Of a stretch of 64,000 nucleotides of DNA, positions 7,801 to 58,318 are shown piece after piece (positions within the stretch are counted from its first letter, which is position 1; every line of letters starts with the position of its first letter). The stretch lies in assembly GCF_044704955.1 (NCBI RefSeq), contig NC_092002.1:13702001-13766000 (forward strand). Direction: 5' to 3'. The stretch comes from Pristiophorus japonicus (lineage: Eukaryota). The position numbers were made by a program, and so were the translations under genes. The notes beneath the pieces are model-generated. The model was not told the DNA's origin, made no database searches, and saw nothing but the letters and a program-made list of their open reading frames with translations.

Positions 7801-8642
7801 AGTCACGGATGGTTATCCCTTCTCTTAGTCTTTCCTTCTCATTGGGATATATTTTTGTTGCGAGTTATGAAATATCTTCTTAAATGTCTGCCACTGCTCA
7901 TCAACCGTCCCATACTTTAATCTACTTTCGCAGACCACTTTAGCCAACTCTGCCCTCATTCCTTTGTTGTCTCCTTTATTTAAGCTTAGGACATTGGTTT
8001 GAGAACCAACTTCCCCAGCCTTCCAACTGAATTTTATATCCAACCATGTTATGATCACTCATTCCTAGAGAATCCTTTACTAGATCATTTATCAATCCTG
8101 TCTCATTACAAAGTACCAGATCTAAAGTAGCCTGCTCCCTGGTTGGTTCTGCAACATACAGTTTGGAATGCTCTGCCTGAGAGGGTGGTACAGGCAGACT
8201 CTATCATGGCTTTCAAAAGGGAATTGGCTAAGTACCTGAAGGTAAAAAAAATTGCAAGGAAACGGGGAAAGGACAGGCGGAGAGGAAGGGAGTGGGACTA
8301 GCTAAAGTGCACTTGCAGTGAGCCAGCACGGGCCCCGACGGGCCGAGTGGCCTCCTTCAGTGCTGTAATCATTCTGCGACGTTTGCTGAAGTCCTCACTC
8401 ACCTTGACCAGCTGGATGAGGTCATCAAGCCTCTTCCGACACTGGATGCGCGTCCTGGGAACCACACTCGCCGCCGTGACAGCTTTGGCTATCTCCTTCC
8501 AGACTCGCCCGCACTGGAGTTTTGAAGGCTTCTCGCCATCTTGCGGAAATAGGATATCGCATCGGCGTTGGGCCCCGTCGACCAGGGCCTCGAGGGTCGT
8601 ATCCGAAAACCGCATCGCCCTTGACGGCTGGTGTCTCTCCAT
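1830..8642 (-). CDS. Myb/SANT-like (Harbinger-derived, NAIF1/MSANTD-type) gene copy A; intact 369 aa when spliced
   Basis: Exons 8642-8403 (240 nt; FSD..L..LV..LF..W..IA..V..RT..QCRKR..DL), 2839-2680 (160 nt) and 2539-1830 (710 nt); GT/AG sites; phases 0 and 1; no internal stops. Confidence 0.8.
4041..4258. mobile_element. Penelope pseudo-LTR-derived hairpin element with 14-bp TSD
   Basis: TSD ttggctacattaca at 4027-4040 and 4259-4272; internal inverted repeat (aaaaacagagaatgctggaaatc... / ...gatttccagcattttctgttttt); same sequence heads the Penelope fragments at about 18550 and 38945. Confidence 0.75.
4131..4170 (-). ncRNA. Candidate minimal hammerhead ribozyme (Penelope-associated)
   Basis: Minus strand agttCTGACGAaaggtcacccaccCGAAACattaactctg contains the CUGANGA...GAAA core; stem II is imperfect. 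Confidence 0.45.
5246..7680 (-). mobile_element. Younger CR1 nested in the older CR1, with an internal inverted segment (about 6721-7040, + strand)
   Basis: ORFs 5526-6029, 6014-6289 and 7032-7772 on minus; 6663-7079 on plus; aacataag tail repeats at about 5246-5272. Confidence 0.85.
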
Positions 8643-8788
8643 GCCTGGCAACAATTCACAACACCACAGATAATGAAACAGTCCGTGCCCACATACAACA
8701 AGACTTGGATAACATTCACTTGGGCTTCTTGTGCATCTCCTCCACCATAAGTATCTTCCTTATGTTGAGGTACAATTGCTGGCGGTTT

Positions 8789-9863
8789 TTAGGTATCTGA
8801 AAGCAAAAAGGCAGAAAGCAAGATATCCATGCATCCACCATCAGCAGCTTGTAAGTGAGGTGATTGTGGGATGAGGGGGAAGTGGGATGTGAGAAGAAGG
8901 ATTAGGTATAAGCATACCGTTGTCATCATCGGTGCTGCTTTCCAATTCTCCGTTCTCCACGGACTCTGTGCCTGTCTCTGCCCCTTCAATAATTTGGAAC
9001 ACTGATTGCTCCAGGTCAGTTAGGCCCACCCTTGCTTGGTCGCCTCCTGCCTGCTGCTGCTCTCCGCGGTTATCAGCCACCTTTACCTGCAAGAGAAAGG
9101 GAAGTGTGTCAGTGAGTGTAAGGCTATGCGTTTGGGTGATGTGACTGCATGGTATAATAGCTGGCAGTGTGTGTGCAAAGTGTGAGATGCGGGTGTGAGT
9201 GTTGCAGCAAGCGGTAAGGTTGTGAGGGTGAAGTGACGCCGTGGCTGTGAGGTGTGGATGGTGACAGCTAGAGATTGTGGGTAGGTGAGTGAAGCAGTGA
9301 CCAGTGTCTGATGGTGGGATGTGGCATTGGCAGAAGAACCAAAGGTGACTTGAGGGGGAAAAAAATTAAATGCGGTGAGTGGTTAGGATCTGGAATGCAC
9401 TGGAAAGGGTGGTGGAGGCAGACTCAATCGTGGATTTTAAAAGGGAATTGGATAAGTACCTAGCGGAATTTTTTTTTGCAGGGTTACAAGAAAAGAGTGG
9501 GGCAGGCAGGGGAGTGGGACTAGCTAAAGCGCTCTTGCAGAGATCCGGCATGGGCCCAGCGGGCTGAGTGGCTTCCTTCAGTGCTGTAATCATTATATGA
9601 TATTTGCTGTAGCTTTCGCTCACCTTGACTAGCCGGATGAGATCATGAAATCTCTTCCGGCACTGGATGGGCGTCCTGAGAAATGTACTCGCCTCCGTGA
9701 CGGCTTTCGCTATCTCCTTCCAGACCCGCTTGCGCTGACTAATTGAAAGCCTCTTGCCCCCTTGCGAAAATAGGACATTGCTTCGTCGTTGGACCCCGTG
9801 GACCAGGGCCGCCAGGGCAGTATCCGAAAACTGCTTTGCCTTTGACCGCCGGTGTCTCTCCAT
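8789..9863 (-). pseudogene. Myb/SANT-like gene copy B; truncated (about 138 aa, Myb domain plus exon 2)
   Basis: Exon 1 9863-9624 intact; exon 2 9086-8918; exon 3 starts at 8796 with an immediate TAA (DT*) and is deleted beyond about 8720. Confidence 0.78.
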
Positions 9864-9899
9864 GCCTGGCAAAAAAGTGCTTCGCCTTTACGGAGAGCC

Positions 9900-10490
9900 T
9901 AGGCCTAACTTTCCTGGGCTGGTAGGCTGCACCCGATATTGGGCACTGCTGCACCCTTCCACTCTTCCCCTGAGAGATCAGCGCTGCAATTGTGTGAACA
10001 AAATTCGTGCTGGCTGCACCACTCAAACGGGCGCAAGGCGAATGCCAGCGGTCGCTGCCTCCGCCGGTTTACGGCCTTAACTAATGTCGTTCGCCGTTCC
10101 AAAGACGAGCAGTGCGCAGGTGCCGGAGAGCCACGGGGTGGGCGGTGCTGACTAACGGTCTGATTGACACATTGCTACATTACGTCACCGAGTCCAGACT
10201 GGGAGTTTGCGCATTGGCGTCTGGCCGGCGGCAGGTTTGCGCGTGATGACGCCACAACCTCCGCCCCCTTACGAGCTGACGACATGCATACAAAATGTGA
10301 AATCGGCGGGAAGGTGGTGTCTGCTCGGCGCCGAGCTGCTGCTGCTGCTGTTGGTCGCCGGGATCTCGGAGCCCGGCAAATGGAGGCTGAATATCGCCGG
10401 GGTAAGTCCGCCGGTCGCCGTGTGAGCCGGAGCGGCGGGGAATCCGGGGCCGTAACTATAGCGACCGGCGGCTGGGCCGCGCTGAAAAAC
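9900..10490. promoter_or_regulatory. CpG-rich, probably bidirectional promoter copy 1 with a degenerate plus-strand signal-peptide exon
   Basis: CpG-dense; tgcgcaggtgc, gggcgg and ttacgtca motifs; exon remnant SAGRWCLLGAELLLLLLVAGISEPGKWRLNIAG followed by gtaagt at 10402; ATG lost. Confidence 0.65.
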
Positions 10491-10584
10491 GGGAAATATC
10501 CCGGTGTGCTGGCAAATGTTTATCCCTCAATCAACATAACAAAACAGATTATCTGGTCATTATCACACTGCTGTTTGTGGGAGC

Positions 10585-13500
10585 TTTTTTTAAATTTCAA
10601 AATATACTTTATTCATATAAAAATTTGCACAATACATTCGAAAGCAGTTAGAAACATAGAAAATAGATGCAGGAGTAGGCCATTCGGCCCTTCTAGCCTG
10701 CACCGCCATTCAATGAGTTCATGGCTGAACATGCAACTTCAGTACCCAATTCCTGCATTCTCGCCATACCCCTTGATCCCCCTAGTAGTAAGGACTACAT
10801 CTAACTCCTTTTTGAATATATTTAGTGAATTGGCCTCAACAACTTTCTGTGGTAGAGAATTCCACAGGTTCACCACTCTCTGGGTGAAGAAGTTCCTCCT
10901 CATCTTGGTCTTAAATGGCATACCCCCTTATCCTTAGACTGTGACCCCTGGTTCTGGACTTCCCCAACATTGGGAACATTCTTCCTGCATCTAACCTGTC
11001 TAAACCCATCAGAATTTTAAACGTTTCTATGAGGTCCCCTCTCATTCTTCTGAACTCCAGTGAATACAAGTCCAGTTGATCCAGTCTTTCTTGATAGGTC
11101 AGTCCCGCCATCCTGGGAATCAGTCTGGTGAATCTTCGCTGCACTCCCTCAATAGCAAGAATGTCCTTCCTTAGGTTAGGAGACCAAAACTGTACACAAT
11201 ACTCCAGGTGTGGCCTCACCAATGCCCCGTACAACTGTATCAACACCTCCCTGCCCCTGTACTCAAATCCCCTCGCTATGAAGACCAACATGCCATTTGC
11301 TTTCTTAACCGCCTGCTGTACCTGACTGATGTACCATGACATTCAGGTCTCGTTGTACCTCCCCTTTTCCTAATCTGTCACCATTCAGATAATAGTCTGT
11401 CTCTCTGTTTTTACCACCAAAGTGGATAACCTCACATTTATCCACATTGTACTTCATCTGCCATGCATTTGCCCACTCACCTAACCTATCCAAGTCACTG
11501 CAGCCTCATAGCATCCTTCTCGCAGCTCACACTGCCACCTAACTTAGTGTCATCCGCAAATTTGGAGAAACTACATTTAATCCCCTCGTCTAAATCATTA
11601 ATGTACAGTGTAAACAGCTGGGGCCCCAGCACAGAACCTTGCTGTACCCCACTAGTCACCGCCTGCCATTCTGAAAAGTACCCATTTACTCCTACTCTTT
11701 GCTTCCTGTCTGACAACCAGTTCTCAATCCATGTCAACACACTGCCCCCAATCCCATGTGCTTTAACTTTGCACATTAATCTCTTGTGTGGGACCATGTC
11801 GAAAGCCTTCTGAAAGTCCAAATATACCACATCAACTGGTTCTCCCTTGTCCACTCTACTGGAAACATCCTCAAAAAATTATAGAAGATTTGTCAAGCAT
11901 GATTTCCCTTTCACAAATCCATGCTGACTTGGACCTATCATGTCACCTCTTTCAAATGCGCTTCTATGACATCCTTAATAATTGATTCCATCATCTTAAC
12001 CACTACCGATGTCAGGCTGACCGGTCTATAATTCCCTGTTTTCTCTCTCCTTTTTTAAAAAGTGGGGTTACATTGGCTACCCTCCACTCGATAGGAACTG
12101 ATCCAGAGTCAATGGAATGTTGGAAAATGACACTCAATGCATCCGCTATTTCCAAGGCCACCTCCTTAAGTACTCTGGGATGCAGTTCATCAGGCCCTGG
12201 GGATTTATCGGCCTTCAATCCCATTAATTTCCCCAACACAATTTCCCGACTAATAAGGATTTCCCTCAGTTCCTCCTCTTTACTAGACCCTCTGACCCCT
12301 CTTATATCCGGAACGTTGTTAATGTCCTCCTTCGTGAATACCGAACCAAAGTACTTGTTTAATTGGTCCGCCATTTATTTGTTCCCCGTTATGACTTCCC
12401 CTGATTCTGACTGCAGGGGACCTACGTTTGTTTTTACTAACCTTTTTCTCTTTACATATCTATAGAAACTTTTGCAATCGTTCTTAATGTTCCCTGCAAG
12501 CTTCTCGTACTCCATTTTCCCTGCCCTAATCAAACCCTTTGTCCTCCTCTGCTGAGTTCTAAATTTCTCCCAGTCTCCGGGTTCACTGCTATTTCTGGCC
12601 AATTTGTATGCCACTTCCTTGGCTTTAATACTATCACTGATTTTCCCTGATAGCCACGGTTGAGTCACCTTCCCTTTTTTATTTTTACGACAGACAGGAA
12701 TGTACAATTGTTGTAGTTCATCCATGCGGTCTCTAAATGTCTGCCATTGCCCATCCACAGTCAACCCCTTAAATATCATTCGCCAATCAATCCTAGCCAA
12801 TTCACGCCTCATACCTTCAAAGTTACCCTTCTTTAAGTTCTGGACCTTGGTCTCTGAATTAACTGTTTCATTCTCCATCCTAATGCAGAATTCCACCATA
12901 TTATGGTCACTCTTCCCCAAGGGGCCTCGCACAACGGGATTGCTAATTAATCCTCTCTCATTACACAACACCCAGTCTAAGGTGGCCTCCCCCCTAGTTG
13001 GTTACTCGACATATTGGACTAGAAAACCATCCCTTATGCACTCCAGGAAATCCTCCTCCACCGTATTGCTTCCAGTTTGGTTAGCCCAATCTATGTGCAT
13101 ATTAAAGTCACCCATTATAACTGCTGCACCCTTATTGCATGCACCCCTAATTTCCTGTTTGATGCTCTCCCCAACATCACTACTACTGTTTGGAGGTCTG
13201 TACACAACTCCCAATAAAGTTTTTTGCCCTTTGGTGTTCTGCAGCTCTACCCATATAGATTCCACATCATCCAAGCTAATGTCCATTCTAACTATTGCAT
13301 TAATCTCCTCTTTAACCAGCAATGCTACCCCACCTCCTTTTCCTTTTATTCTATCCTTCCTGAATGTTGAATACCCTTGGATGTTGAGTTCCCAGCCTTG
13401 ATCATCCTGGAGCCATGTCTCCGTAATCCCAATCACATCATATTTGTTAACATCTATTTGCACAGTTAATTCATCCACCTTACGGATACTCCTTGCATTA

Positions 13501-15996
13501 AGACATAAAGCCTTCAGGCTTGTTTTTTTAACACCCTTTGTCCTTTTAGAATTTTGCTGTACAGTGGCCCTTTTTGTTTTTAGTCTTGGGTTTCTCTGCC
13601 CTCCACTTTTCCTCATCTCCTTTCTGTCTTTTGTTTTTGTCTCCTTTTTGTTTCCCTCTGTCTCCCTGCATTGGTTCCCATCCCCCTGCCATATTAGTTT
13701 AACTCCTCCCCAACAGCACTAGCAAACACTCCCCCTAGGACATTGATTCCGGTCCTGCCCAGGTGCAGACCGTCCGGTTTGTACTGGTCCCACCTCCCCC
13801 AGAACCGGTTCCAATGCCCCAGGAATTTGAATCCCTCCCTGCTGCACCACTGTTCAAGCCACGTATTCATCTGCGCTATCCTGCGATTCTTACTCTGACT
13901 AGCACGTGGCACTGGTAACAATCCTGGGATTACTACTTTAGAGGTCCTATTTTTTAATTTAGCTCCTAACTCCTTAAATTCGTTTCGTAGGACCTCATCC
14001 CTTTTTTACCTATGTCGTTGGTACCACGACAACTGGCTGTTCTCCTTCCCTTTTTAGAATGTCCTGCACCCGCTCCGAGACATCCTTGACCCTTGCACCA
14101 GGGAGGCAACATACCATCCTGGAGTCTCGGTTGCGGCCGCAGAAACGCCTATCTATTCCCCTTACAATTGAATCCCCTATCACTATTGCTCTCCCACTCT
14201 TTTTCCCGCCCTCCTGTGCAACAGAGCCAGCCACGGTGCCATGAACCTGGCCGCTGCTGCCCTCCCGCGATGAGTCATCCCCCCCAACAGCACTCAAAGC
14301 AGTGTATCTGTTTTGCAGGGGGATGACCACAGGGGACCCCTGCACCACCCCCCTTGCACTACTCTTCCTGCTGGTCTTCCATTCCCTATCTGTCTGTGGA
14401 CCCTTCACCTGCGGTAAGACCAACTCGCTACACATGCTACTCACGTCATTCTCAGCATCGTGGATGCTCCAGAGTGAATCCACCCTCAGCTCCAACTCCG
14501 CAACGCGGTCCGTCAGGAGCTGGAGGCGGACACACTTCCCGCACACGTAGTCGTCAGGGACACTGGAGTCGTCCCTGAGTTCCCACATGGTACAGGAGGA
14601 GCATAACACGTGACCGAGCTGTCCTGCCATGACTTAACCCTTAGATAGGCAACAACAATGCTAAAGTTTACTCACTGTTATAGAAGAGAAAAAAGATAAA
14701 CTACTCACCAATCACCAGCTAATCACCCACCCCTTTGGCTGTGACGTCACCTTTCTGTTTCTTTCTACTTTTTTGCTTTCTCCCTGTAGCTGCACAAGCA
14801 CGCCTCACCAACCCCGGACTCGCGCTGCTCCAAGTGCCATTTGGAGTTCAGTACATTTGGATGCGGTCAGCAATTCCATACATTACATTTGGATGCTGAC
14901 CGCAGTTCCGTTCAATACATTACTTTACATTTCAAGGTACAATTCATACAATCCAGGATACATTGTGGTACGTTCATCAAGTTACATTACATGTGTCACT
15001 ATACAGTACACAGTGAGGGTACAGTTACATTTCTTTCCAACATGCATTATACATGGCACTACATAGGTGTTTGCAGATCATGGTGCTCTAGGTATACAAA
15101 AGGTTTACCATTGCAGCCCGAGGGGAGTTTTATACTGATTCCAGCCCCTGGGTTTACCGTGGCGGAAGGGCTTTAAACTGTGGCTCTTCCCCACCGTGCC
15201 TTTGCGGCGGCTGCACCAATTTTTAGTGTGTCCCTCAGCACGTGGTCCTGGACCTTGGATTGCGCCAGTCTGCAACACGCAGACGTGGACATCTCCTTGC
15301 TCTGGAAGACCAGCAAGCTTCGGCATGACCAAAGTGCGTCTTTCACCGAGTTGATTGCCCTCCAGCAGCTGGTGATGTCTCTCTGTGTGTGTCCCTGGGA
15401 ACAACCCGTAGAGCACAGAGTCCTGTGTTACGGAGCTGCTCGGAATGAACCTCGACAGCAACCACTGCATCTCTTTCCAGACCTGCCTTGCAAAGGCGCA
15501 ATCTTGAAGGAGGTGGGTGACAGTCTCGTCCACCCCGCAGCCGACTCGGGGGCACCGTGCCGTGCTGCTGAGACGCCGGCTGTGCATGAAAGCTCTTGAC
15601 GGGTAGGGCCCTCCTCACCGCCAACCAAGCTACATCTTGGTGCTTGTGTGAAAGCTCTGGCGATGAGACGTTCTGCCAAACGAGTTCGACAGTCTGCTTG
15701 GGGAACCACCTGACAGGGTCCACCCTCTCCTTTCGTAGGGCGTCCAGGACCTTACGTGCTGACCACTGTTTTATGGCTTTGTGGTCAAAGGGGTTTTTTG
15801 TGAAAAACTTTTCCACGAAGGATAGGTGGACAAGCATGGTCCAGCTGGTGGGGCCGTTTCGCGGCAGCGTGGCCAGGCCCATCCTTCGCAACACCGGGGA
15901 CAGGTAGAACCTCAGCACGTAGTGACACTTGGTGTTTGCATACCGGGGGTCTGTGCAGCCGCACACAAACCTGAGGGCCACGTTCGGAGCATCCTT
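10585..15996 (-). mobile_element. Tx1-clade LINE 3' portion (zf-RVT end plus 3' UTR), interrupted by a full-length CR1
   Basis: RRALPVKSF..CPRVGCG..ETVTHLLQDC CCHC motif in 15105-15981; 16-bp TSD tgctgtttgtggg(a/g)gc at 10569-10584 and 15997-16012. Confidence 0.8.
10649..14840 (-). mobile_element. Near full-length CR1 LINE (ORF1 zinc finger plus SGNH esterase; ORF2 APE endonuclease plus RT), frameshifted
   Basis: ORF1 14630-13694 (CxxC..CxxC, IVIGDSIVR, DGLHL); ORF2 13616-10739 (LNARS, ITETW, GDFN, FADDT). Confidence 0.95.
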
Positions 15997-17314
15997 TGCT
16001 GTTTGTGGGGGCTGGCCGCGTTTGGCATATTACATCAGTGACTGCACTCCAAAATCTCTCAAAGGCCAGGTATCACAGAGAAGGCAACTGCAGCCTTTTC
16101 ACAGACTAGAACCATCTCTTCAACCCTCCTCCCCCCCCCCCCCCCTCAGACTTATCTGTCAGTTGCTTTCCCCGCCTTCATTCATGAGCTCACGACAGTG
16201 GAATGGCTTCACGCACAAGTTTGAAATGTTGGTGCATACTGTGAAAGTAAGAAAGAGCTTGTATTCATAGTGTATTATCACATCCTTGGGATGTCTTGAA
16301 GAGCTGTGCATCCAATAAGTTACTTTTTGATATGTATTATGTAGGTGAACGTGGCAGACAATCTGCAGACAGCGAAGTACCAAAGGCACCAAATCGCCTG
16401 ATCTGTTTCGTGTTCAATGCAGGACACCCAGAGGAGCTCCCCTGCCTCTCCAAGTTGAGACATAGGGTCTTTCATGTCTACCTGAAGCAGCAGGTGGGTT
16501 TTAATCTCCTGAAAGATGGCATCTCTGACTGCAGCACTCCCTACAGCCTTCTAATTTAGAGACGAGTGTGGCCGACTGAGGAACATAGGCCCCTTTCAGT
16601 CCCTTGAGCCTGTTCTGTCATTCAATTAGATCGTGGCTAATTATTAGAAGAGTATGTATTAGGGACCAGTTACATCACAGTTTCAGGCCAATATCTGTAG
16701 AATGCAATGTGGAGAAAGCTGAACTGAATGGCATGATGTATTCACGTTCAGAGCTCTGTTCAGCAGCGGGTTAAAGTCTAACGGGACCACTCATAACATT
16801 AATTGCATTTAACTTTCAAAATGTCCCAAATGGATTGCAACACACTAACGTGCAGCTGGGATGCAAACTCCATTATACTTACTGCTGCCTAGCAACCCTG
16901 GATAGGTTGCTCAGAATGGAATCATTATGAACGTCTGAGGTTGTTACGCGGGATGCCACTCCCCCAATTATATTTAACTGAAATACTGCCGTGTATTTCA
17001 GGAGACCCCATTACCGTTTTCCCCAGGAATGTGTGCGATTCAGTAGGTGGCCGTCTAACAGATGTTGGTCCACTTTTCCGATCGAGCCGGCTCAATTTCC
17101 GGCTGTAAATTGGGAAAACCAAATAAAGTGTTAGAAATTATACATTGATGAGGGGCTTTTTGCTGGAGCTCGCCTTAGAAAAATGAATAGTGTACAGTGC
17201 GCACACACCCATTCGTGGAATTGTTCCTACCCTGCAGCCACTCATGACATTGTATTATGTTTAAGGCAGTGTATAAGGTTGCATATATTGACACCGCCCG
17301 GTCCAGGCAGCAGG

Positions 17315-17490
17315 CGGTCGAGGGGGTCACTCAGTCCGACTGCCTGCCTCTTCCGCGGTTACATCTGAGCTAGCGTGTCCCTGGAGCTGGAGCACATGGT
17401 GTCCGCTGGTACACTCACAGCCTTCCGTGAGAGGTGGGCACTGGAGGGACTGGAGTGCATCATCACCCCAGGCAAACAAATTTTAATTTG
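17315..17490 (+). mobile_element. Tx1-like LINE 3' fragment
   Basis: Translates CLPLFRGYI*ASVSLELEH..TAFRERWA, typical of the Tx1 ORF2 C-terminus. Confidence 0.55.
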
Positions 17491-18544
17491 ATCCACGAAT
17501 GTTAAAAGTTTAATTTGTCAGTTTTAGTGCCCCTTTATTGTTTTACAAAAATAGTTATAATGACACTGCTGTTCCCAGCCAGAATGGAGATGATTGACAG
17601 GGCATTGCGCAATCACACCTGGACAGGGACTAATTTTACACACATAATTTGTCTGTAACTATCTTCCACACACTGCATTTTGCTGGTGAAATCACCTTGC
17701 TGTTTATCGGGAGACTTTGTTGTAGTTTGGTCATGAGTTCGCTTTGCTGTACTGGTAGAGACTTTATTGAAATAGATTGTCTGCTGTGAGTCCGACCATG
17801 AGTCCCACTCCACCTCCAAATCATTGCTTGACACAGTGGTGTCAATAGACTCAGTGATTCTAATGCTGGTTGTTTTGGGAAGGATAGCTGAATCATAGAA
17901 TCTCAGTCAGAAGGCGGCCATTTGCCTGTGCTGGTTCAGCTATCCAAGCAGTCCCACTCCCCTGCTCTCTCCGCACAGCCCTGCGAATCTCTGCTTTCTC
18001 TCCAGCTGCTAACATGACTTGACACTATTTGTTCTGCGGTTTGACTGCCTGGTGATTAGATCGGGAGTTAACTGATTTAGAATGAGCACTGCCTTTTGTT
18101 TAGTGATTTATACCCGATAAAGTGCGGCAGTTAAGGACAAGGCCGTTGAATAAAATAAACTTGTACTGGTTGAAAGAAATGCAAGTCTTGTGTGTTCTCC
18201 TGAGGCACAGAATGTCTCACAGTAGACCTTTACAGTAAATAAACCAAGCACTCAGGGTTAATTCTAGTGGGATAGATTTGAAAAGTAAACAAGTTATTCG
18301 AAACTTGTATTGCACCTTGGTTAGACTTCACATGGAGTACTGCGTACAATTCTGGATGCCATATTATAATGCGAGGTTAATACCTATCAGGAAAGGATAA
18401 ACAGGCTGGGTCTCTTTTTCTCTTGAAAAGAGAAGGCTGAGGGGTGACCTAGTAGAGATCTTTAAAATGATGAAAGGCTTTGAGCAGACGCAGAGAGGGT
18501 GTTTTCACTTGTGGGGAAGAGCAAAACGAGAGGCTACCAATATA

Positions 18545-19255
18545 AAATATAAACAGAAAATACTCAGCAGGTCAGGCAGCATCTGTGGAGCGAGAGAAAC
18601 AGTTAGCATTTCAGGTCGATGACCTTCAGAACTATAAAAAGTTAGAGATGTAACAGATTTTAAGCATGTGCAGGGTTAAGGGCGAGGGGAGGAAAGAGCA
18701 AAAGGGAAGGTCTGTGATGGGGTGGACGGCAGGAGTAATTAAATGACAAAAGGGATAATTGTTCAGAGCAATGGGGGATGGTAATAGTACAAGTAAAGAA
18801 GCAAAAGATGGGTCTAGAAGACGTGTAATTGGGAATGGCAGACTCATCAGCTGCTATCGGAAAAAATAGGGGTAGAGGTTATGATCTGAAATTGTTGAAC
18901 TCTATGTTGAGTCCAGAAGGCTGTAAAGTGACTAATTGAAAGATGAGGTGCTGTTCCTCGAGTTTACGTTGAGCTTTGTTGGAATAGTATAAGAGGCCGA
19001 GGTCAGAGTGGGAGTGGAGCGGATAATTATGTCAGGCGACCGGAAGCTCGGGGTCACGCTTGTGGACTGAATGGAGGTGTTCCGCTCAGTGGTCACCCAA
19101 TCTGCTTTTGGTCTCCCCAATGTAGAGGGCACTGGATTGTGAGCAGCCAATAGTGTACTAAATTGCAAGAAGTACAAATAAATCGCTGTTTCACCTGGAA
19201 GGAGTGTTGGGGACCCTGGGCAGTGGGAAGGGAGATGGTAAAAGGACAGGTCAAG
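18545..19255 (-). mobile_element. Degenerate Penelope fragment (GIY-YIG end plus pLTR); paralog at 38940-39490
   Basis: QGPQHSFQVKQRFICTS; similar to the element at 53890-55870. Confidence 0.75.
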
Positions 19256-19409
19256 AGGCCCAATGGTTGGGGCTGGGGGACTATGAGCAATGATGGAATT
19301 TAGTTTTGTCTTGTTTCTTTAGCCGGTATCCTGCTAGATGCCAATAGACACAATGCAGTGTCACTGATGCAGGCAGACTGATACCCAGACTGAAGGCTGA
19401 ACGATTCTA

Positions 19410-20170
19410 ATCTCTAGTTTTCCTCTTCCCCACAAGTGGAAACACTCTCTGTATCTACTCTTATCAAAACCTTTCATAATTTTGAAGACCTCTCTTAGGT
19501 CACCCCTGGGACTTCTCTTTTCAAGAGAAACCAAGCCGGTTCATCCTTTTCCGACAGATATACCCTCGTATTTCTGGTATCATCCTTGTAAACCTCCAGT
19601 GCTTCTATATCCTTTTTAGAATACAGCAACCAGAATTGTATGCAGTACTCCCAAGTGTGGTCTAACCAAGGTTCGATTCACGTTTAGCATAATTTCTCTG
19701 CTTTTCAATTCAAACCCTCTAGAAATAAACCCTGGTGTTTGGTTTGCTTTTTTATGGGCTTGTTAACCTGTGTCGTTCCTTTCAGCGATTTGTGTATTTG
19801 TACTCAGACATCCCTTTGCTCTTCTATTTGTATTTTGTATTTTCCAAGTAATATGTAACCTCCCTACTTTTATTACCAAAATGTAATACCTCATTTATCT
19901 GTGTTGAATTTAATTTGCCAATTATATGCCCATTCTGCAATTTATTAATGTATTCTTGTAATTTGTTGCAGCCCTCCTCAGTATTGACTATTCCTCAGTA
20001 TTGGTGTCATCTCCAAATTTAGAAAGTGTTTTGTTTCCAAAGTCTAAATCGCTAATCTTGAAGCCAGCTAGTTATCTATTCTGCTACTTGTCCCCTGACT
20101 CCACATGCTGTGACCTTATTCATTAGTCTATTATCTGGTACCTTATTGTAGGCCTTTTGAAAATCTAGAT
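19410..20170 (-). mobile_element. Old degenerate CR1 fragment (paralog at 42420-43120)
   Basis: CR1 RT/3' sequence (gtgtggtctaaccaagg, gtcatctccaaatt). Confidence 0.7.
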
Positions 20171-20676
20171 AAATCTGGAGTCATCAATCTCCACTGGGCT
20201 GTAAGGGAGATGGGATCAGGCAGGAGATAGACAGCGCAGGTGACTGTAGAATGGCACTGCCTGAGACCAGGGAGCAGGTTGTCCACATTTTATCTCTGTT
20301 GGGGAATGGGATAGGTTGTGTGCACCGATCTAAAGGCAAAATCACAAAGCAAGTAAGGAAAGAAAACTTAAATGGGTTCCTTAATAAATCCTATTTGTAA
20401 AATAAAGGCAGATAGTTCTTCCAATAAAATCTTTTTTTAATTCAAAAATTAATTTTCCAATAAGTGAGGTTGTAGCTTGATGCTGATGATAATTACAGCA
20501 GAATTTTTTCAAACAGAATTAGTGTACAAAATAGGGTAAAAATCCGACAACTGTATTTGGGACATTCGTGTTGTCTGTAGAACAGTTCAGGTTGTTTCCA
20601 TCGTGATGTTTTCCGCTTTTTGGCCTACGAATTCATCTACTTCAGACACGGTTCCAAACACAATACAAACAATGTT

Positions 20677-21274
20677 TTACAATGTTTTAGTTCTCATGGT
20701 ACCCAATGCATGTAGAGATATCACATCTTGTTTCCTTTCGTTCTTGCACATGATCTGACAGCAAGGCAATAATCTCGTCACGAATCTGACCTGCAGACTG
20801 TCATCTGTAATAATCTGGTGTTGCATTGTACATGAGGAAACCGAGGAATGACACTGCGTTTGCTCTGACCTCGGGTAGCACATTCCTAAAGAAGGTGACA
20901 CAGCTCCTTATGTACAAAGTGATCTGGTTGGGGAAGTCTTTGGTAATGTGCCTGGAGTTGTTGCGTAAATATTTCTCAAAATACAGGGTGGTCTCCTCCA
21001 AGGAAAGCTCTTGAAACATCTTGGACATGATTTCTGACTCCATTACTGGACTGTAGGAATTCAGCACGGATTTGCAGACTTTGATGACTTCATTGCTCTC
21101 ATCGTTGAGATGCAGCAGCAAGCTGATCAAGGTGGACTTGATGTGCTCAATATGTGCAGGGTTCATTTCCACAGTCCCAAATCTGATCAGCTTCCCAAGT
21201 ACATTAAAAGCCGTAGCTCTCACTTTCTCATGTTGATTTTCAAAGTAAGGCTGAACTGCCAGTGCAAACACCAA
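20677..21274 (-). pseudogene. MROH1: MROH1/maestro-like C-terminal HEAT-repeat fragment, intronless
   Basis: VQPYFENQHEKVRATAF..LISLLLHLND..VCKSVL..FPNQ..FFRNVLPEVRANAVSFLGFL resembles the MROH1 C-terminus; stop and frameshift near 20800. Confidence 0.75.
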
Positions 21275-21339
21275 GAATCGGATGTATTGCCAAGCAGCCG
21301 ATAACTTTATTTGAAAAAGGCCGTGTCATTATTTCCTGC

Positions 21340-22600
21340 TTGAGGTCATCATCAGCAGAAGAATTGTATGCCACCACAATCTGTAACCTCATGGCCCAGC
21401 AGATCCTCCACTCTACCATTACTATCAAGTCATGGAACCAATCATGGTTCAATGAGGAATGTAGAAGAGCATGCCAAGAGCAGCACCAGGCGTACCTAAA
21501 AATGTGGTACCAACCTGGAAGCTACAACACATGACTACATTTATGCTAAACAGCAGAAGCAGCATGCCATAGGCAGAGCTAACCAATCCCACAACTCAAC
21601 GGATCAGATCAAAGCTCTGCAGTCCTGCCACATCCAGTCGGGAATGGTGGTGGACAATTAGACATCTAATGAGAAGAGCAGACTCCATGAACACCCCCAT
21701 CCTCAATGATAACGCAGCCCAGTACATGAGTGCAGAAGACAAGGCTGAAGCGTTTTGCAACCATCATCAGCCAGAAGTGCCGAGTGGATGATCTATCTCG
21801 GCCTCCTCCTGAGGTCTCCATCACTAAAGCCGGTCTTCAGCCAATTTGATTCACTCCACGTGATATCAAAAAACGGCTGAGCGCACTGGATACAACGAAG
21901 GCAAAGGACCTCGACAACATTCCAGCAGTAGAGTTGAAGACTTGTGCTCCAGAACTAGCTGCGCCTCTGGCCAAGCTGTTGCAGTACAGCAACAACACCG
22001 GCATCTATCTAACAAAGTGGAAAATTGCCCAGGTATGTCCTGTCCCCAAAAAAGACAAAACCAACCCTGCAATTATCGCCCCATCAGTGTACTCTCAATC
22101 ATCAGTAAAGGAAGGAGTCATCGACAGTACTATTAAGCGGCACGTACTCAATAGCCTGCTCACCATTACACAGTTTGAGTTCCACCAGGACCACTCAGCT
22201 CCAGAACTCATTAGAGCTTTGGTCCAAACATGGACAAAAGAGATTAATTCTAGAGGCGAAGTGAGAGTGACTTCTCTTGATATCAAGGCAACATTTGACC
22301 AAGTAGTGAAATTGAAGTCTATAGGAATCAGGGGTAAAACCGCTGACTGGAGTTATATCTAGCACAAAGGACTATGTTTGTGGTTGGTGGCCAGTTATCT
22401 CAGCCCCAGGACATTGCTGCAGGAGTTCCTCAGACCCAACCATCTTCATCAATGATCGACAGTCCATTATAAGGTCAAAAATGAGGACTGCACAGTGTTT
22501 AGTTCTATTCGCAACCCATCAGATAATGAAACAGTCCGTGCCCACATTTAGCAAGCCCTGGACAACATTCAGGCTTGGGCTGATAAGTGGCAAGTAACAG
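21340..22600 (+). mobile_element. Old CR1/jockey-group LINE RT fragment (amplicon block)
   Basis: ORFs 21262-21534 (WFNEECRRACQEQHQAYL) and 21934-22362 (KTCAPELAAPLAKL..). Confidence 0.8.
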
Positions 22601-22694
22601 TCGCAGCACGCAACTCCTTTTTTGGACACGAGTATGCACACACAGGACAACACCTCGAATTTCAAATCTCTCCATGGCCTCACCCTACCATATC

Positions 22695-24422
22695 TCAGCA
22701 ACCTTTTCCAGCCCTACATGCCTCCGAGAGCTCTGCAATCTGTTGGAGTACAGATTGCTGGCCCCTTTCGACACTTGTAAACCCAGCGATGATGGCAGCA
22801 GTCTGAGCTTCCACTACTGCAGTGAGATGTTGGGACGCTTCTGCCTGTGCTGCAATGGAAGCCACAAGATCGCCCATCACATCCACCATCATATTTGGGT
22901 CAAGATCTCTCATGGAGCTGTCCATCATTTCCATCCCGGAAATCATGGGCTCCAAGCTCTGCGCAAAACCCTGTACAATGTTGGAGCTGGACACCTCCAT
23001 GCTCCTTGACACTGACAAGAGGCTTTTTGGCAGGCTTGCCATTGCACCAAGCATTTCTGTGTGCATGCCCATCACCTTTCTTCTGAAGGACGCCCCATCG
23101 AGGTCGTCATCGGAATCCTGTGGTGCAGAACTCGTGCACAAACTCGGCTTCCGGTGACCTGGCACCCGAGCGACCCTTTGCCCCTGTCCTGGCTGCAGCC
23201 CACTCATGCCCGGTGACTCACCACTTGTGGATCCGGCCTCTGTACTATCCTTTAAAGTCTGTGCAGTGCCACTTCCTGAGCTTGCGTCTACGGGTGTCAG
23301 ACGCAGTTGCATTTTGTCGAGGTCTTCTTGTGCTCCTCCTACATAAGTGTCTTCCTTATGTTCAGGTACAGTTGCTGGCGGTTCTTGGGTATCTGAAAGC
23401 AGAAAGGCGGTGGGGGGAGGGGGTAGCAAAATATCCATGCACACACCATCAGCAGTTTGTAAGTGAGAAGTGATTATGGGATGAGGGGGAAGTGGGATGT
23501 GGGAAGTATTGGGTATAAGCATACCGTCATCATCAGCGCTGCTTTCCACTTCTCCGTTCTCCGTGGACTCTGTCCCTGCCCTTTCGATAATTTGGAATAC
23601 TGATTGCTCCATGTCTGTTAGGTCAAACCTCGCCTGGCCGCTTCTCGCCTGCTGCTGCTCTCCGCGGTTATCAGCCACCTTTCCCTGCAAGAGAAAGGGA
23701 AGTATGTCAGTGAGTGTAGGGCTATGCGTTTGGGTGATGTGCCTGCCATGGTTGAATAACTGGCAGTGTGTGCAAAGTGTGGGATGTGGGTGTGAGTGTT
23801 GCACCAGCGGTAAAGTTGTGAGGGTGAAGTGTAGCTGTGAGGTGTGGGTGGTGACAGCGAGAGATTGTGGGTAGGTGAGTGAGGCTAGGAATGCAGATGG
23901 TGGGATATGGCATTGGCAGAAGAACCAAGGTGACTTGAGGAAAAACATCTTAATGCTGCAAGTGCCTGAGAGGGTGGTGGAGGCAGACTCAATTGATGCT
24001 TTCAAAAGGGAATTGGATAAGTACCTGCAGGAAAAAAAATTGCAGGGATACGGGGAAAAGGTGGGCGGGGGAGCGGGACTAGTTAAAGTGCACTTGCAGT
24101 GAGCCGGCACGGGCCCGACGGGCTGATTGGTCTCCTTCAGTGCTGTAATCATTCTACAACATTTGCTGAAGTCTTCACTCACCTTCACCAGCCGGATGAG
24201 GTCATCAAGCCTCTTCCGACACTGGAGGGGTGTTCTTGGAACCACACTCGCCGCCGTGACAGCTTTGGCTATCTCCTTCCAGACCCGCCCGCACTGGAGT
24301 TTTGAAGGCCACTTGCCGCCTTGCGGAAATAGGATATCGCGTCGTCGTTGGGCCCCGTCGACCAGTGCCTCGAGGGCAGTGTCCGAAAACCGCACCGCCC
24401 TTGACGGCCGGTGTCTCTCCAT
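22695..24422 (-). CDS. Myb/SANT-like gene copy C; intact 365 aa spliced (also open unspliced)
   Basis: Exons 24422-24183, 23684-23525 and 23392-22695; introns of 498 and 132 nt with GT/AG; the ORF track shows one 579-aa frame across everything. Confidence 0.82.
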   Translation of the reverse strand: MERHRPSRAVRFSDTALEALVDGAQRRRDILFPQGGKWPSKLQCGRVWKEIAKAVTAASVVPRTPLQCRKRLDDLIRLVKVSEDFSKCCRMITALKETNQPVGPVPAHCKCTLTSPAPPPTFSPYPCNFFSCRYLSNSLLKASIESASTTLSGTCSIKMFFLKSPWFFCQCHIPPSAFLASLTYPQSLAVTTHTSQLHFTLTTLPLVQHSHPHPTLCTHCQLFNHGRHITQTHSPTLTDILPFLLQGKVADNRGEQQQARSGQARFDLTDMEQSVFQIIERAGTESTENGEVESSADDDGMLIPNTSHIPLPPHPIITSHLQTADGVCMDILLPPPPTAFLLSDTQEPPATVPEHKEDTYVGGAQEDLDKMQLRLTPVDASSGSGTAQTLKDSTEAGSTSGESPGMSGLQPGQGQRVARVPGHRKPSLCTSSAPQDSDDDLDGASFRRKVMGMHTEMLGAMASLPKSLLSVSRSMEVSSSNIVQGFAQSLEPMISGMEMMDSSMRDLDPNMMVDVMGDLVASIAAQAEASQHLTAVVEAQTAAIIAGFTSVERGQQSVLQQIAELSEACRAGKGC

Positions 24423-24651
24423 GCCTGGCAACAATTCACAACACCACAGATAATGAAACAGTCTGTGCCCGCATTCAACAAGACCTGGACAACATTCAGG
24501 CTTGGGCTGCTAAGTGGCAAGTAACAGTCACGCCACACAAGTGCTGGTGAATGACCATCTTTTTCAGACACACACTCACACATTTAGACAGCACTCGCAC
24601 AGGACAACACCTCTAATTTCAAATCCCTCCACGGCTTCACCATACCCTATC

Positions 24652-26285
24652 TCAGCAACCTCTTCCAGCCCTACATCCCTCCGAGAGCTCTGCAATCTGT
24701 TGGAGTACAGATTGCTGGCCCCTTTCGACACTTGTAAAACCAGCGATGATGGCAGCAGTCTGAGCTTCCACTGCAGCAATGAGACGTTGGGTTGCTTCTG
24801 CCTGTGCTGCAATGGAAGCTGCAAGGTCTCCCATCACATCCACCATCATGTTTGGGTCCACAAGATCTCTCATGGAACTGCCCGTCATTTCCATCCCAGA
24901 AATCATGGGCTCCAAGCTCTGCGCAAAACCACGGGCAATGTTGGTGCTGGACACCTCCATGCTCCTTGACACTGACAAGAGACGCCTTGGCAGGCTTGCC
25001 ATTGCACCAAGCATTTCTGTGTGCATGACCATCACCTGAAGGCCACCCCATTGAGGGCATCATCCAAGTCCTGCATTGCAGAACTCATGCGCAAACTCGC
25101 CCTCCGGGGATCTGTCATGTGAGCGACCCTTTCCCACTGTCCCGGCTGCAGCCCACTCGTGCCCGGTGACTCACCATGTGCAGATCCCTCTAAAGTCTGT
25201 GCAGTGCCACTTTCTGAGCTTGCGTCTACGGGTATCATATGCTGTTCCGTCTTGTCGTCGTCTTGTGCTTCTCCTCCACCATAAGTGTCTTCCTTATGTT
25301 CAGGTACAATTGCTGGTGGTTCTTGGGTATCTGAAAGCAGAAAGGCGGGGGGGAGGGTAGCAAGATATCCATGCTTACTCCATCAGCAGTTTGTAAGTGA
25401 GAAGTGATTATGGGATGAGGGGGAAGTGGGATGTGAGAAGAACGATTAGGTGTAAGCATACTGTCATCATCTGCGATGCTTTCCGCTTCTCCGTTCTCCA
25501 TGGACTCAGTTACAGCCCCGTCGATAATTTGGAACACTGATTCCTCGAGGTCAGTTAGGCCCACCCTCGCTTGATCGCCTCCCTCCTGCTCTCCGCGGTT
25601 ATCAGCCACCTTTTCCTGCAAGAGAAAGAGATGTGGTTGCCATGATTGAATAGCTGGCAGTGTGTGCAAAGTGTGAGGTGTGGGTGGTGACAGAGAGAGA
25701 TTGTGGGTAGGTGAGTGAGGCAATGAGCAGTGTGTGAGGCTAGGGTTGCTGATGGTGGGAAAGGGCAGTGGCAGAAGAACCAAAAGGTGACTTGAAGGAA
25801 AAACATGTTTAAATGCAGCGAGTGGTTAGGATTTGGTATGCACTGCCCGAGAGGTTGGTGGAGGCAGACTCAATCGTGGCTTTCAAAAGGGAATTCACTA
25901 AGTACCTGAAGGAAAAATGAAAATTGCAGGGTTACAGGGAAGGGGCGGGGAGTGGGACTAGCTAAAGCGCTCTGGCATTGGCGTGACGGCTGCAATCCTT
26001 CAATGCTGTAATCATTCTACAACATTTGTTGAAGCCTTCACTTACCTTGACCAGCCGGATGAGGTCATGAAATCTCTTCAGACACTGGAGGGCCGTACTG
26101 GGAACTTCACTCGCCAATGTGACGGCTTTCGCTACCTCCTTCCAGACCAGCCTGGACTCCAATCTTGAAGGCCTCTTGCCACATTGCGGGAATAGGATAT
26201 TGCGTCGTCGTTGGACCCCATGGACCAGGGCCTTCAGAGCCATATCCGAAAATCGCGTTGCCCTCGACAGCCGCTGTCTCTCCAT
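24652..26285 (-). pseudogene. Myb/SANT-like gene copy D; frameshift in exon 3
   Basis: Exons 26285-26046, 25615-25462 and 25330 onward; a deletion of about 7 nt at about 25036 (ttcag|gtgatg vs ttcagaagaaaggtgatg) gives a stop at 25032-25034, before the helical C-terminal region. Confidence 0.78.
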
Positions 26286-27329
26286 GCCTGGTAACAATTC
26301 ACAACACCACAGATAATGAAACATACAAGACCTGAACAACATTCAGGCTTGGGCTGCTAAGTGGCAAGTAACAGTCGCGCCACACAAGTGCTGCATAATG
26401 ACCATCTTTTTCAGACACACAAACACACGCGCACAAATTTCACACAACACTTCAAGTCCCTCCAGGGCCTCGCCCTACCCTATGTCAGCAACCCTACATC
26501 CCTCCGAGATTGTCCATCACATCCACCATCATGTTTGGGTCAAGATCTCTCATGGAACTGCCCATCATTTCCATCCCGGAAATCATGGGCTCCAAGCTCT
26601 GCGCAAAACCCCGGGCAATGTTGGAGCCGGACTCCTCCATGCTTCTTGACACTGACAAAAGGCTCTTTGGCAGGCTTGCCACTGCACCAAGCATTTCTGT
26701 GTGCATGCCCATCACCTTTCTTCTGAAGGCCACCCATTGAGGTCATTATCCGAGTCCTGTGGTGCAGAACTCGTGCGCAAACTCTATGCAAGAAGAACGA
26801 TTAGGTACAAGCATACCGTCGTCATCATCAGTGCTGTTTTCCAATTCTCCGTTCTCCACGGACTCTGTCCCTGCCCCTTCCATAATTTGGAACACTAATT
26901 CCTCCAGGTCAGTTAGGTCAACCCTCGCTCGGTTGCCTCCCGCCTGCTGTCCGCGGTTATCAGCCACCTTTACCTGTAAGAGAAAGGGAAGTGTGTCAGT
27001 GAGTGTAGGGCTATGCGTTTGGGTGATGCGCCTGCCATGGTTGAATAGCTGGCAGTCCGTGTGAAGTGTGAGATGTGGGGGTGAGTGTTGCAGCAGCGGT
27101 AATGTGAGGGTGATGTGAAGCCGTGAGGAGTGGGTGGTGACAGCGAGAGATTGTGGGTAGGTGAGTGAGGCTAGAGGTGCAGATGGTGGGATATGGCATT
27201 GGCAGAAGAACCAAAGGTGACTGGAGGGATTTTTTTTTTAATGCAGCGAGTGGTTAGGATTGGGACTGCACTGCTTGAGAGGGTGGTAAAAGCAGACTCG
27301 ATTGTGGCTTTCAAAAGGGAATTGGTTGG

Positions 27330-27595
27330 TACATAAGAAATAGGAGCAGGAGTAGGCCATTTGGTCCCTCGAGCCTGCTCCGCCATTCATTAAGATCATG
27401 GCTGATCTGATCATGGGCTCAGCTCCACTTCCCTGCCCGCTCCCCATAACCCTTCACTCCCTTATCGTTCAAAATTCTGTCCATCTCCGCCTTAAATATA
27501 TTCAATGACCCAGCCTCCACAGCTCTGGTGTAGAGAATTCCACAGATTTACATATCTCTGAGAAGAAATTCCTCCTCATCTCAGTTTTAAGTGGG
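27330..27595 (-). mobile_element. CR1 3'-end fragment in intron 1 of copy E
   Basis: acataagaaataggagcaggagtaggcc.. HER1-type tail. Confidence 0.8.
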
Positions 27596-27599
27596 GTAA

Positions 27600-27832
27600 T
27601 CCCACTTCTTCAAAATATTACCATGGGATCTTTTACATCCACTTTAGGGCAGACGGGGCCTCGGTTTAACGTCTCATCCGAAAGACGGCACAGCCTGCAG
27701 TCCAGCACTCCCTCAGGACTGGCACTGGGTGTGTCAGCATGGATTATTGTGCCCAAGTCTCTGGAGTGTGACTTGAACCCACAACCTACTGACTCAAGAG
27801 AGGAGAGTGCCACTCACTGAGCCACTGGCTGA
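27600..27832 (-). mobile_element. DeuSINE/SacSINE1-like SINE (tRNA-derived head)
   Basis: gcctcggtttaacgtctcatccgaaagacggca Deu-type core; minus-strand tggctcagtg A-box and gggttcaagtc B-box. Confidence 0.65.
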
Positions 27833-27970
27833 ATCCTGATGGAAATGTTTTTTGCAGGTTTACGGGAAAAGGGCGGTGCGGGCGGGGGAGTGGAACTAGC
27901 TGAAGCGCTCTTGCAGAGAGCCGGCATGGGCCCAGCAGGTCGTGGCCTCCTTCAGTGCTGTAATATTCTA

Positions 27971-28209
27971 AAAGTGGAGGAAGTGCATCCGGGAGAGCGC
28001 TGAGCACCTCGAGTCTCATCGCCGAGAGCATGCAGAAACCAAGCGCAGGCAGCGGAAGGAGCGTGCAGCAAACCATTCCCACCCACCGTCTGTCCCACCT
28101 GTGACAGAGACTGTAATTCCCGTATTGGACTGTTCAGTCACCTGAGAACTCACTTTTAGAGTGGAAGCAAGTCTTCCTCGATTCCAAGGGACTGCCTATG
28201 ATGATGATG
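27971..28209 (+). mobile_element. RTE-clade LINE 3' end with (ATG)n tail
   Basis: CPTCDRDCNSRIGLFSHLRTH zinc finger; gactgcctatgatgatgatg tail; flanking aat(c)attcta repeat. Confidence 0.78.
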
Positions 28210-28519
28210 AATCATTCTATGACATTTTGCTGAAGCCTTCACTCACCTTGACCAGTCGGCTGAGGTCATGAAATCTCTTCCGGCACTGGAGGGGCGTCCT
28301 GGGGATCACACTCGCCTCCGTGACAACTTTGGCTATCTCCTTCCAGACCCGCTTGCGCTGGCGGATTGAAGGCCTCTTGCCCCCTGGCGGGAATAGGATA
28401 TTTCGTCGTCGTTGGACCCCGTGGACCAGGGTCTCCAGGGTCCGATCCGAAAAGCGCTTCGCCTTTGACCGTTGGTGTCTCTCCATGCCTGTCAACAAAG
28501 CGCCTCGTCTTTTTTATGG

Positions 28520-29110
28520 AGAGCCTGGGCCTAACTTTCCAGGAATGGTAGACTGCACCCGATATTGGGCACCTCCCCACCCTTCCTCTCTTCCCCTGAG
28601 AGATCAGCGCTGCAATCGTGTGAACAAGCGCCAGAAATCCGTGCAGGTTGCACCACTCCAACAGGCGAATACCGGCGGTCGCTGCCCTCGCCGGTTTGCG
28701 GCCTTAGTCAACGTCCGTCGCAAAGGCGGACACTGCGCAGGCGCCGGGGTGGGCGGGGCTTCCCATCCATCTGATTAACAGTTTGCGTCATGGCGCCACA
28801 ACGTCGGGTCCAGACTGGGAGTTTGCGCAGAGGCATCTGGCCACCGGAGGGGTTTGTGCGCGATGACGTGTCAAACTCCCCGCTCCCTTGCGCACTGACG
28901 TTCAGACGGAAAACAAGATGGTGGTGAGGTGGTGGCGACCGTGGTGGCGGAGCCCGGCAAATGGAGGCTGAGTGTCGCCGGGGTAGGTCCGTCGGTCGCC
29001 GTGTGAGCCGGAGCGGCGGGGAATCCGGGGCCGCAACTATAGCGACCGCGGCCTAGGCCGCAGCAGCGTGGACCCTGGGCCGCGCTGACCCGGCTCTCGC
29101 CGTCCCCTGA
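28520..29110. promoter_or_regulatory. CpG-rich promoter copy 2 with an internally deleted signal-peptide exon
   Basis: tgcgcaggcgc, gggcgggg and tgacgt motifs; aagATGg at 28918; EPGKWRLSVAG followed by gtaggt at 28983. Confidence 0.65.
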
Positions 29111-29187
29111 TAGCCGCGGCCCGGTTGGTGCTGTCAGCTCATAGCGAGTGCGAATTACAGAGGTATGCGGTACAGAAACAGGCCATT

Positions 29188-44665: not shown

Positions 44666-45038
44666 GGTTGTGTGCACGGATCTAAAGAGAAAAACACAAA
44701 GCAAGGGAGGAAAGGAAATTAAAAGGGTTTCCTTAATAAATCTTATTTGTAAAATAAATACAGACAGTTCTTCCAATAAAATCTTTTCTTTATTCAAAAA
44801 TTAATTTTCCAATAAGTGAGGTTGGAGTTGATGCTGATGATAATTACAGCAGAAATTTTTCGAACACAATTTATGTACAAAATAGGGTAAAAATCCAACA
44901 ACTGTATTTGGGACATAAGTGTTGTCTGTAGAACAGTTCAGGTTGTTTCCATTGTGATGTTTTCTGCCTTTTGGCCATTTTTGATCTACGAATTCTTCTA
45001 CTTCAGACATGTTTCCAAACACAATACAAACAAATCCC

Positions 45039-58263: not shown

Positions 58264-58318
58264 TTTCGCAAAAAGTAATTGTCCTTATTAGATTTCAGCT
58301 TCAGTTACGGGTGCTCGT

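Follow-up and report, generated by a model that had tools for sequence, protein, structure and literature searches.

Six copies of a Myb/SANT-like gene and their serial splicing

We analyzed a 64,000-nucleotide (nt) stretch of repeat-rich vertebrate DNA from Pristiophorus japonicus (assembly GCF_044704955.1, contig NC_092002.1, positions 13,702,001-13,766,000 of the forward strand); this entire stretch is referred to as the window, and all positions are given within it. The window contains six copies, here called A to F, of a three-exon gene for a Myb/SANT-like domain (PF13873), all on the minus strand. Self-comparison resolved six copies of a single gene body as well as three segmental units, and a CpG island is found in every unit. 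The copies are arranged in two arrays, B-A and E-D-C, located about 12 kb apart, and copy F is found alone in the third unit. An initial annotation of this DNA had placed a single locus at 8403..28486, a range that merges the two separate arrays and cuts off B-A, which continues to position 1830.

Exon 1 is 240 nt in size and of phase 0 in all six copies, and exon 2 (160 nt in F, 157 in E, 154 in D, 160 in C, 169 in B and 160 in A) runs from phase 0 to phase 1, in agreement with the initial annotation, all exon coordinates of which were confirmed. The coding sequences of copies A, C and F are intact and correspond to 369, 365 and 376 amino acids (aa), respectively. Exon 3 of B contains a stop at its third codon, yielding a 138 aa product, as well as a large deletion; exon 3 of D has a 7-nt deletion (230 aa product if read through); and E has no exon 3 acceptor. 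These lesions, and the intactness of A and C as the last copies of their arrays, had likewise been recognized correctly. The exon 3 deletions of B and E are not the same and therefore arose separately. The translation of copy F is 100% identical to P0001, a UniRef protein of P. japonicus labelled 'myb-related transcription factor, partner of profilin-like' ('MYPOP-like' being a database label only), and a seventh intact paralog, P0002, located outside the window, is 88% identical.

Database proteins join the copies within each array. P0007 (506 aa, two Myb domains) corresponds residue for residue to exons 1 and 2 of B, positions 8644-8403, and exons 2 and 3 of A, and two shorter isoforms use the same joint between B exon 2 and A exon 1. 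P0011 (682 aa, three Myb domains) corresponds to exons 1 and 2 of E, exons 1 and 2 of D, the first 156 nt of D exon 3, and exons 1 to 3 of C. The gene structures are thus not new to databases, where the fused chains are already public as automated models named 'uncharacterized protein'. Isoform sets of this kind are usually based on RNA alignments.

Contigs from three runs of one study, the kind of run being unrecorded, were compared with positions 20300-29300 only, which cover E-D-C and not B-A. The results concern the 15 best-supported of 52 joints, with 31 letters on each side as the threshold for bridging. Six of these 15 lie at exon borders, show minus-strand GT-AG ends and were present in all three runs: introns 1 and 2 of C, introns 1 and 2 of D, E exon 2 to D exon 1, and the shortened D exon 3 to C exon 1. 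The joint from E to D was bridged by this threshold in every run (52/160/52), and that from D to C was present in every run and reached at least 31 letters in two (30/55/55). By the same rule, D exon 1 to exon 2 was bridged in three runs and intron 1 of C in one, while the short side was only 29-30 letters for intron 2 of both C and D. One contig of 559 nt comprises E exon 2, D exon 1 and D exon 2 with no differing letters, and paralogous exons differ by 8-20%. The remaining nine joints had no GT-AG ends and 20-26 letters on the short side, and lay mostly between repeat fragments. Upstream of the ATG of E, the contigs continue unspliced. The exons and new introns of the three genes are as follows.

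1830-2539, minus: exon 3 of A, last coding exon of B-A (two Myb domains), encoding an acidic linker followed by two long helices
2680-2839, minus: exon 2 of A, part of P0007
8403-8644, minus: exon 1 of A as an internal exon, with acceptor cag|GC and the old ATG at 8642; second Myb of B-A, matching P0007
8645-8796, minus: remnant of B exon 3 (stop, deletion) and the duplication junction 11 nt before the ATG of A; intronic in database models
8918-9086, minus: exon 2 of B, the phase-1 donor of which is joined to A exon 1 in database models
9624-9863, minus: exon 1 of B, start of the B-A gene and first Myb domain
22695-23392, minus: exon 3 of C, last coding exon of E-D-C with its three Myb domains (P0011, contigs)
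23525-23684, minus: exon 2 of C (P0011, contigs)
24183-24424, minus: exon 1 of C as an internal exon, third Myb (joint 25175->24424 in three of three runs; P0011)
24425-25174, minus: new intron with the distal part of D exon 3 (7-nt deletion), the old stop, 3' flank and duplication junction (750-nt GT-AG skip)
25175-25330, minus: exon 3 of D, cut to 156 nt by the cryptic donor CATG|GTGAGT, phase 1 to 1 (P0011, contigs)
25462-25615, minus: exon 2 of D (P0011, contigs)
26046-26287, minus: exon 1 of D as an internal exon, second Myb (joint 26817->26287 in three of three runs)
26288-26816, minus: new intron with the acceptorless remnant of E exon 3, further deletions, 3' flank and duplication junction (529-nt skip)
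26817-26973, minus: exon 2 of E (P0011, contigs)
28247-28486, minus: exon 1 of E, start of the E-D-C gene and first Myb (P0011)
46478-50035, minus: copy F, an intact single-Myb gene with exons at 50035-49796, 47498-47339 and 47208-46478 (376 aa, 100% identical to P0001)

We conclude with high confidence that the arrays are spliced in series, so that exons 1 and 2 of each copy are joined to exon 1 of the next. Use of the cag|GC acceptor is shown for C and D by the contig joints and is modelled for A. A 630-aa path from D exon 2 directly to C exon 1 has an open frame and was not among the 15 best-supported of the 52 joints. Eleven of the 13 exon-skipping paths tried reach the normal stop in frame; the other two, which read into a dead exon 3, do not.

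Intron 1 of A is 5.6 kb, as compared with 430-540 nt in B, C and D, because of nested LINE-like (long interspersed nuclear element) insertions at 3138-8110, and the database models still splice over it. Intron 1 of F harbors an insertion resembling a miniature inverted-repeat transposable element at 49462-49762, with 71-nt inverted ends that are 93% alike. Two database isoforms of 347 and 316 aa (P0003/P0006) leave exon 3 of A at a donor specific to this copy (2415), losing the C-terminal helices; their last exons were not found in the window.

Duplication junction, promoters and 3' ends

The motif cag|GCATG is present at the ATG of all six copies, and the AG that the initial annotation had noted before each ATG thereby proved to be the key splice site. 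A single junction is common to A, C and D, passing from the 3' flank about 200 nt past the stop to the last 11 nt before the ATG; the duplicated unit therefore lacked both promoter and poly(A) signal. The AG-free zone before the motif spans 36-57 nt in A, C and D versus 12-13 nt in B, E and F, and about half of the junction tract is T. The exon 2 donors are of phase 1, and the G together with the GC of the acceptor makes one codon, so that the ATG of the next copy is in frame. The cryptic donor used by D exon 3 lies upstream of the frameshift. This donor is also present, in the same phase, in the third exons of F (47029), C (23222) and A (2360), and truncating splices may occur in these copies too. 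The 3' flank at the junction is presumably an old LINE fragment; its open reading frame (ORF) has no Pfam match.

Each CpG island carries a divergent exon on the plus strand.

9864-10600, no strand: CpG-island promoter of unit 1, a duplicate of the TMEM87A promoter, with a decayed TMEM87A exon 1 on the plus strand at about 10303-10401
28487-29300, no strand: promoter of unit 2, likewise a CpG island, containing a remnant of TMEM87A exon 1 on the plus strand (28918-28982) that is frameshifted
50508-50633, plus: first exon of TMEM87A-like, coding for a signal peptide and sharing a CpG island with F in head-to-head orientation, 42 of 42 residues identical to P0005/P0008

The divergent exon is the start of TMEM87A at F, and its copies at B (61% identity over 41 residues) and E (60% over 20 residues) are decayed; the Myb gene thus makes use of the other side of a TMEM87A CpG promoter. 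F shares this bidirectional promoter with TMEM87A, and B and E carry duplicated remnants of it. Copies A, C and D have no promoter DNA upstream and begin 11 nt 5' of the ATG, at the junction to 3'-flank DNA. The proposal of one promoter thus stands as read-through from one per array, but there are three promoters in all, at B, E and F. CpG promoters are indeed found at the first copies of the arrays, with the correction that a CpG-rich 400-nt segment also covers exon 1 of A and of C (observed/expected 0.99 and 0.94).

The hexamers AATAAA and ATTAAA are missing from all three spacers between copies, as described initially. The intact copies are equally devoid of such a hexamer until 1.4-1.7 kb past the stop (471, 21311 and 44794), so the duplicated unit just ends short of the poly(A) signal, and we rejected the absence as a special feature of the spacers. 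Downstream of C and F, at about 20450-21350 and 44780-45270 (minus strand), is an intronless HEAT-repeat fragment with stops that looks like a retrocopy, the matches to HEAT and MROH2B-like sequences being weak and below the cut-off; it may supply the poly(A) signal. Contigs with 0-1 differing letters cover 20516-20774 and 20984-21474 in this area.

Non-coding blocks common to the units (16055-16826, 29859-31083 and 52371-53400) apparently derive from intron 1 of TMEM87A and were copied together with the units when these were duplicated. Just inside the first intron of TMEM87A, all three units contain a conserved near-palindrome (about 10420-10440, 29030-29045 and 50685-50700), which we take to resemble an RFX X-box. 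A sequence search of the PDB with the TMEM87A exon gave no match. The TMEM87A-like isoforms P0008 and P0005 (X1 and X2) differ where about 26 residues of the membrane region have been exchanged, which suggests mutually exclusive exons outside the window.

Selection, history and protein products

Exons 1 and 2 of the six modules have accumulated about 234 substitutions on the tree, for which a simple model with no CpG effect predicts 9.0 stops in the absence of constraint, and none was observed (P ~1e-4). Indels, counted by hand, were all frame-keeping in the coding sequences (9-11 events by gap counting, 10 used) as compared with 12 of 31 in introns (P=0.0007), and after exclusion of triplet-repeat indels the coding count was 4 of 4 (P=0.035). 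Exon 1 has no indel in any of the six copies, not even an in-frame one, and the frame-breaking changes in exon 3 are confined to parts that are now intronic. Copies A and C, which lack a promoter, are intact, and B and E, which have one, have lost their own ends; this is the opposite of neutral decay.

The trees pair B with E and A with C (DNA bootstrap values of 87 and 93; protein support of 0.91 and 0.98), and the placement of D has a bootstrap value of 48%. From this pairing it follows that the two-module gene predates the split of units 1 and 2, and that D was gained in one unit or lost in the other. The exon 3 DNA tree, which covers only 180 nt, did not repeat the grouping obtained for exons 1 and 2 and is too short to place D, which may be of chimeric origin or derive from gene conversion. 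The flanks differ by 11-15%. All seven close copies clustered apart from other shark and ray proteins, a pattern that fits a lineage-restricted expansion.

All six exon 1 sequences match PF13873 above the gathering cut-off of 21.7 bits (23.5-45.0 bits), and matches to PF13873 and PF13837 suggest a domain of the SANT-Myb-trihelix type. The structure model for F (43 sequences; mean predicted local distance difference test score, pLDDT, of 73) has a confident helical domain over residues of about 10-120, followed by a disordered acidic middle part and two long helices (236-297 and 303-373). Exons 1 and 2 encode the complete folded domain (residues of about 7-120), so that what has been repeated is a domain in its entirety. 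The best Foldseek matches were Sap1, SANT, TRF, Zeste and GT-1 domains, of the Myb or trihelix DNA-binding type, none at an E-value of 0.001 or better (best 0.019). The products most likely act in the nucleus as regulators that bind DNA or chromatin, with a valence increasing from one to three or with extended target sites.

Single-domain relatives with a similar C-terminus are present in Heptranchias, rays and the whale shark. Among the 157 proteins examined, 11 others have two domains, two of them named as frog proteins, and E-D-C is the only one with three; the doubling is thus not unique to this locus. P0013, P0019 and P0026 have related linker and C-terminal segments attached to unrelated-looking N-termini, a hint that host genes often capture members of this family, or that annotation has joined them wrongly.

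Origin of the multi-Myb genes and comparison with known systems

The two multi-Myb genes are best read as the outcome of tandem duplication and read-through fusion, with an acceptor made by the duplication junction. The starting point would have been a single-Myb, three-exon gene driven in the reverse direction by the CpG promoter of TMEM87A, as kept and shown in F, the layout of which is ancestral. A tandem duplication with one endpoint 11 nt 5' of the ATG and the other about 200 nt beyond the stop would then have left out promoter and poly(A) signal; the junction is shown in A, C and D, and the order of events is reconstructed. The junction would have set an AG-free, T-rich tract before the latent cag|GC-ATG, converting it into an acceptor and the old ATG into an internal methionine codon. 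The stop-carrying upstream third exons would have been bypassed in three ways, by skipping in B, deletion of the acceptor in E and the cryptic donor in D. Finally, the promoter and the two-module unit would have been duplicated again, giving B-A and E-C, and D would be one extra module, as the trees suggest. The predicted proteins have two or three Myb domains and a helical C-terminus in common.

Several observations weigh against this reading. The pyrimidine tracts of the new acceptors are weak (0.50 versus 0.80-0.90). The runs and the database models may share a source and may thus not be independent, the contigs show adjacency rather than one molecule with all three modules, and the joined proteins are predictions from contigs and automated models. 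The ratio of nonsynonymous to synonymous substitutions (dN/dS) was 0.51-1.27 for exons 1 and 2 in 15 pairs (median 0.73, above 1 in three) and 0.51-0.72 for exon 3 in three pairs, which points to a protected reading frame with fast-changing amino acids under apparently weak constraint. The internal Myb modules score 23.5-35.3 bits with a net charge of +6 to +12, as compared with 41.6-45.0 bits and +15 to +17 for the others, so that DNA binding by these drifted modules may be poor or absent.

The initial annotation had proposed that variable Myb exons are spliced to a constant C-terminus, as in UGT1 and the clustered protocadherins, with which the arrays share tandem paralogous 5' exons of compatible phase before one intact 3' end. 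As the main mode, with one module of exons 1 and 2 spliced straight to the last exon 3 to give single-Myb proteins, we consider this hardly credible. All such joins are in frame with no premature stops (363-372 aa in six of six tried), as predicted, but this is trivial for paralogous exons, and we rejected phase compatibility as evidence. A joint from exon 2 to the distal exon 3 was found in none of the 15 best-supported cases, as opposed to two serial cross-copy joints, and in none of the four multi-copy database isoforms. The predicted joints 26817->23392 and 25462->23392 were accordingly not among these 15, and 8918->2539 was in none of the three B-A isoforms. Minor use is possible, given that 37 of the 52 joints lie below the 15 best-supported, and the CpG-rich exon 1 of A and C might allow weak starts of their own. 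Half of the copies (A, C and D) lack an upstream promoter, unlike the variable exons of UGT1, each of which has one according to the accessible text of PMC3325998, and the modules are joined together rather than used in a mutually exclusive manner (the contig with E2-D1-D2, the D-to-C joint, P0007 and P0011). Myb-only products, which had also been envisaged, would in the case of B and D end at a stop that is premature in a read-through transcript, being located more than 50 nt 5' of the last junction.

Serial fusion would also result if the read-through were a tolerated by-product, with a one in three chance of correct phase, chains that are expressed and extra Myb modules that add nothing, selection merely holding the frame so that the last module and the C-terminus get made. 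This possibility, which we regard as less likely, overlaps with tandem duplication and fusion in that the splicing model is the same and only function differs. It would explain the dN/dS near 0.7, with values above 1 in three of 15 pairs, and the loss of charge and Pfam score in the internal modules, and frame preservation by itself accounts for the lack of stops. It is less easily reconciled with an exon 1 that is indel-free and still passes the PF13873 cut-off in all six copies, or with the two-module layout kept in both segmental copies. It is very unlikely that A to E are pseudogenes in decay or separate genes of one copy each, with fused models and joints that are artefacts of annotation or assembly or stem from a processed DNA copy: although the kind of run is unrecorded, the models are automated and unitigs of paralogs can be chimeric, the joints fall exactly on predicted GT-AG sites in three of three runs with copy-specific sequence, the modules avoid stops and frameshifts, and a processed copy would itself prove that spliced RNA existed. 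At the other extreme, since the skipping paths are in frame, regulated splicing could set the number of diverged Myb heads on one C-terminus to one, two or three, and the helical tail might mix with F and P0002 into combinatorial DNA readers, possibly aimed at transposon ends; we mention such valence-tunable genes as an improbable speculation.

The origin of transcription factors with repeated domains is usually inferred after the traces have vanished, as for DUX from sDUX. In the accessible part of PMC13558733, a gene with a single DNA-binding domain became double by duplication and in-frame fusion with one C-terminal region kept, and homodimer binding by sDUX overlaps that of the tandem domains of DUX4 (excerpt of PMC9882399). 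Similarly, a single-domain precursor exists here (F/P0001 and P0002, with shark and ray relatives), and paralogous modules share one open frame in B-A and E-D-C, according to contigs and automated models. Unlike in DUX, which has homeodomains, the domain is Myb/SANT-like and putatively of the trihelix type, the join is made by splicing to a junction-made acceptor with the discarded terminal exons still visible, and genes with one, two and three domains are located together within 50 kb. Domain gain has been attributed mainly to exon joining of adjacent genes after duplication (PMC2926785, in part), and domain-repeat expansion to internal tandem duplication (PMC1553488, in part). The present case follows the same general route of duplication and subsequent cross-copy exon joining, but here a single gene supplied both donor and recipient as paralogs, nearly the whole gene body was duplicated and the steps are readable.

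With precursor, two-domain and three-domain genes side by side, and with the acceptor-making junction and three exon 3 bypasses legible, the effect of an added DNA-binding module on affinity and specificity becomes directly testable. The locus is also a warning for annotation, since seemingly broken pseudogenes and silent promoterless copies are exons of longer genes. No description of it was found in a literature search of mostly open-access text with no supplements.

A SANT-Myb-trihelix-type domain is also present in Harbinger Myb-like proteins and the domesticated NAIF1 and MSANTD1-4 (PMC9392472 and PMC9179366, accessible portions), which the copies resemble in domain class. No DDE transposase was detected in the 48 ORFs scanned out of 78 stop-to-stop ORFs of at least 130 aa, a scan that short or spliced remnants could escape. 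Inverted repeats forming short termini around a Myb copy were absent from the 25 longest of 75 pairs, all 25 of which lie in retroelement stretches. Intron 1 of TMEM87A contains a broken endogenous retrovirus at 56900-62650 (minus strand), separate ORF pieces of which match the families of zinc knuckle, reverse transcriptase, RNase H, integrase and env (TLV_coat), and a near-full-length LINE with an endonuclease match at 10650-14850 (minus strand) is 93% identical to a copy at 40217-42421.

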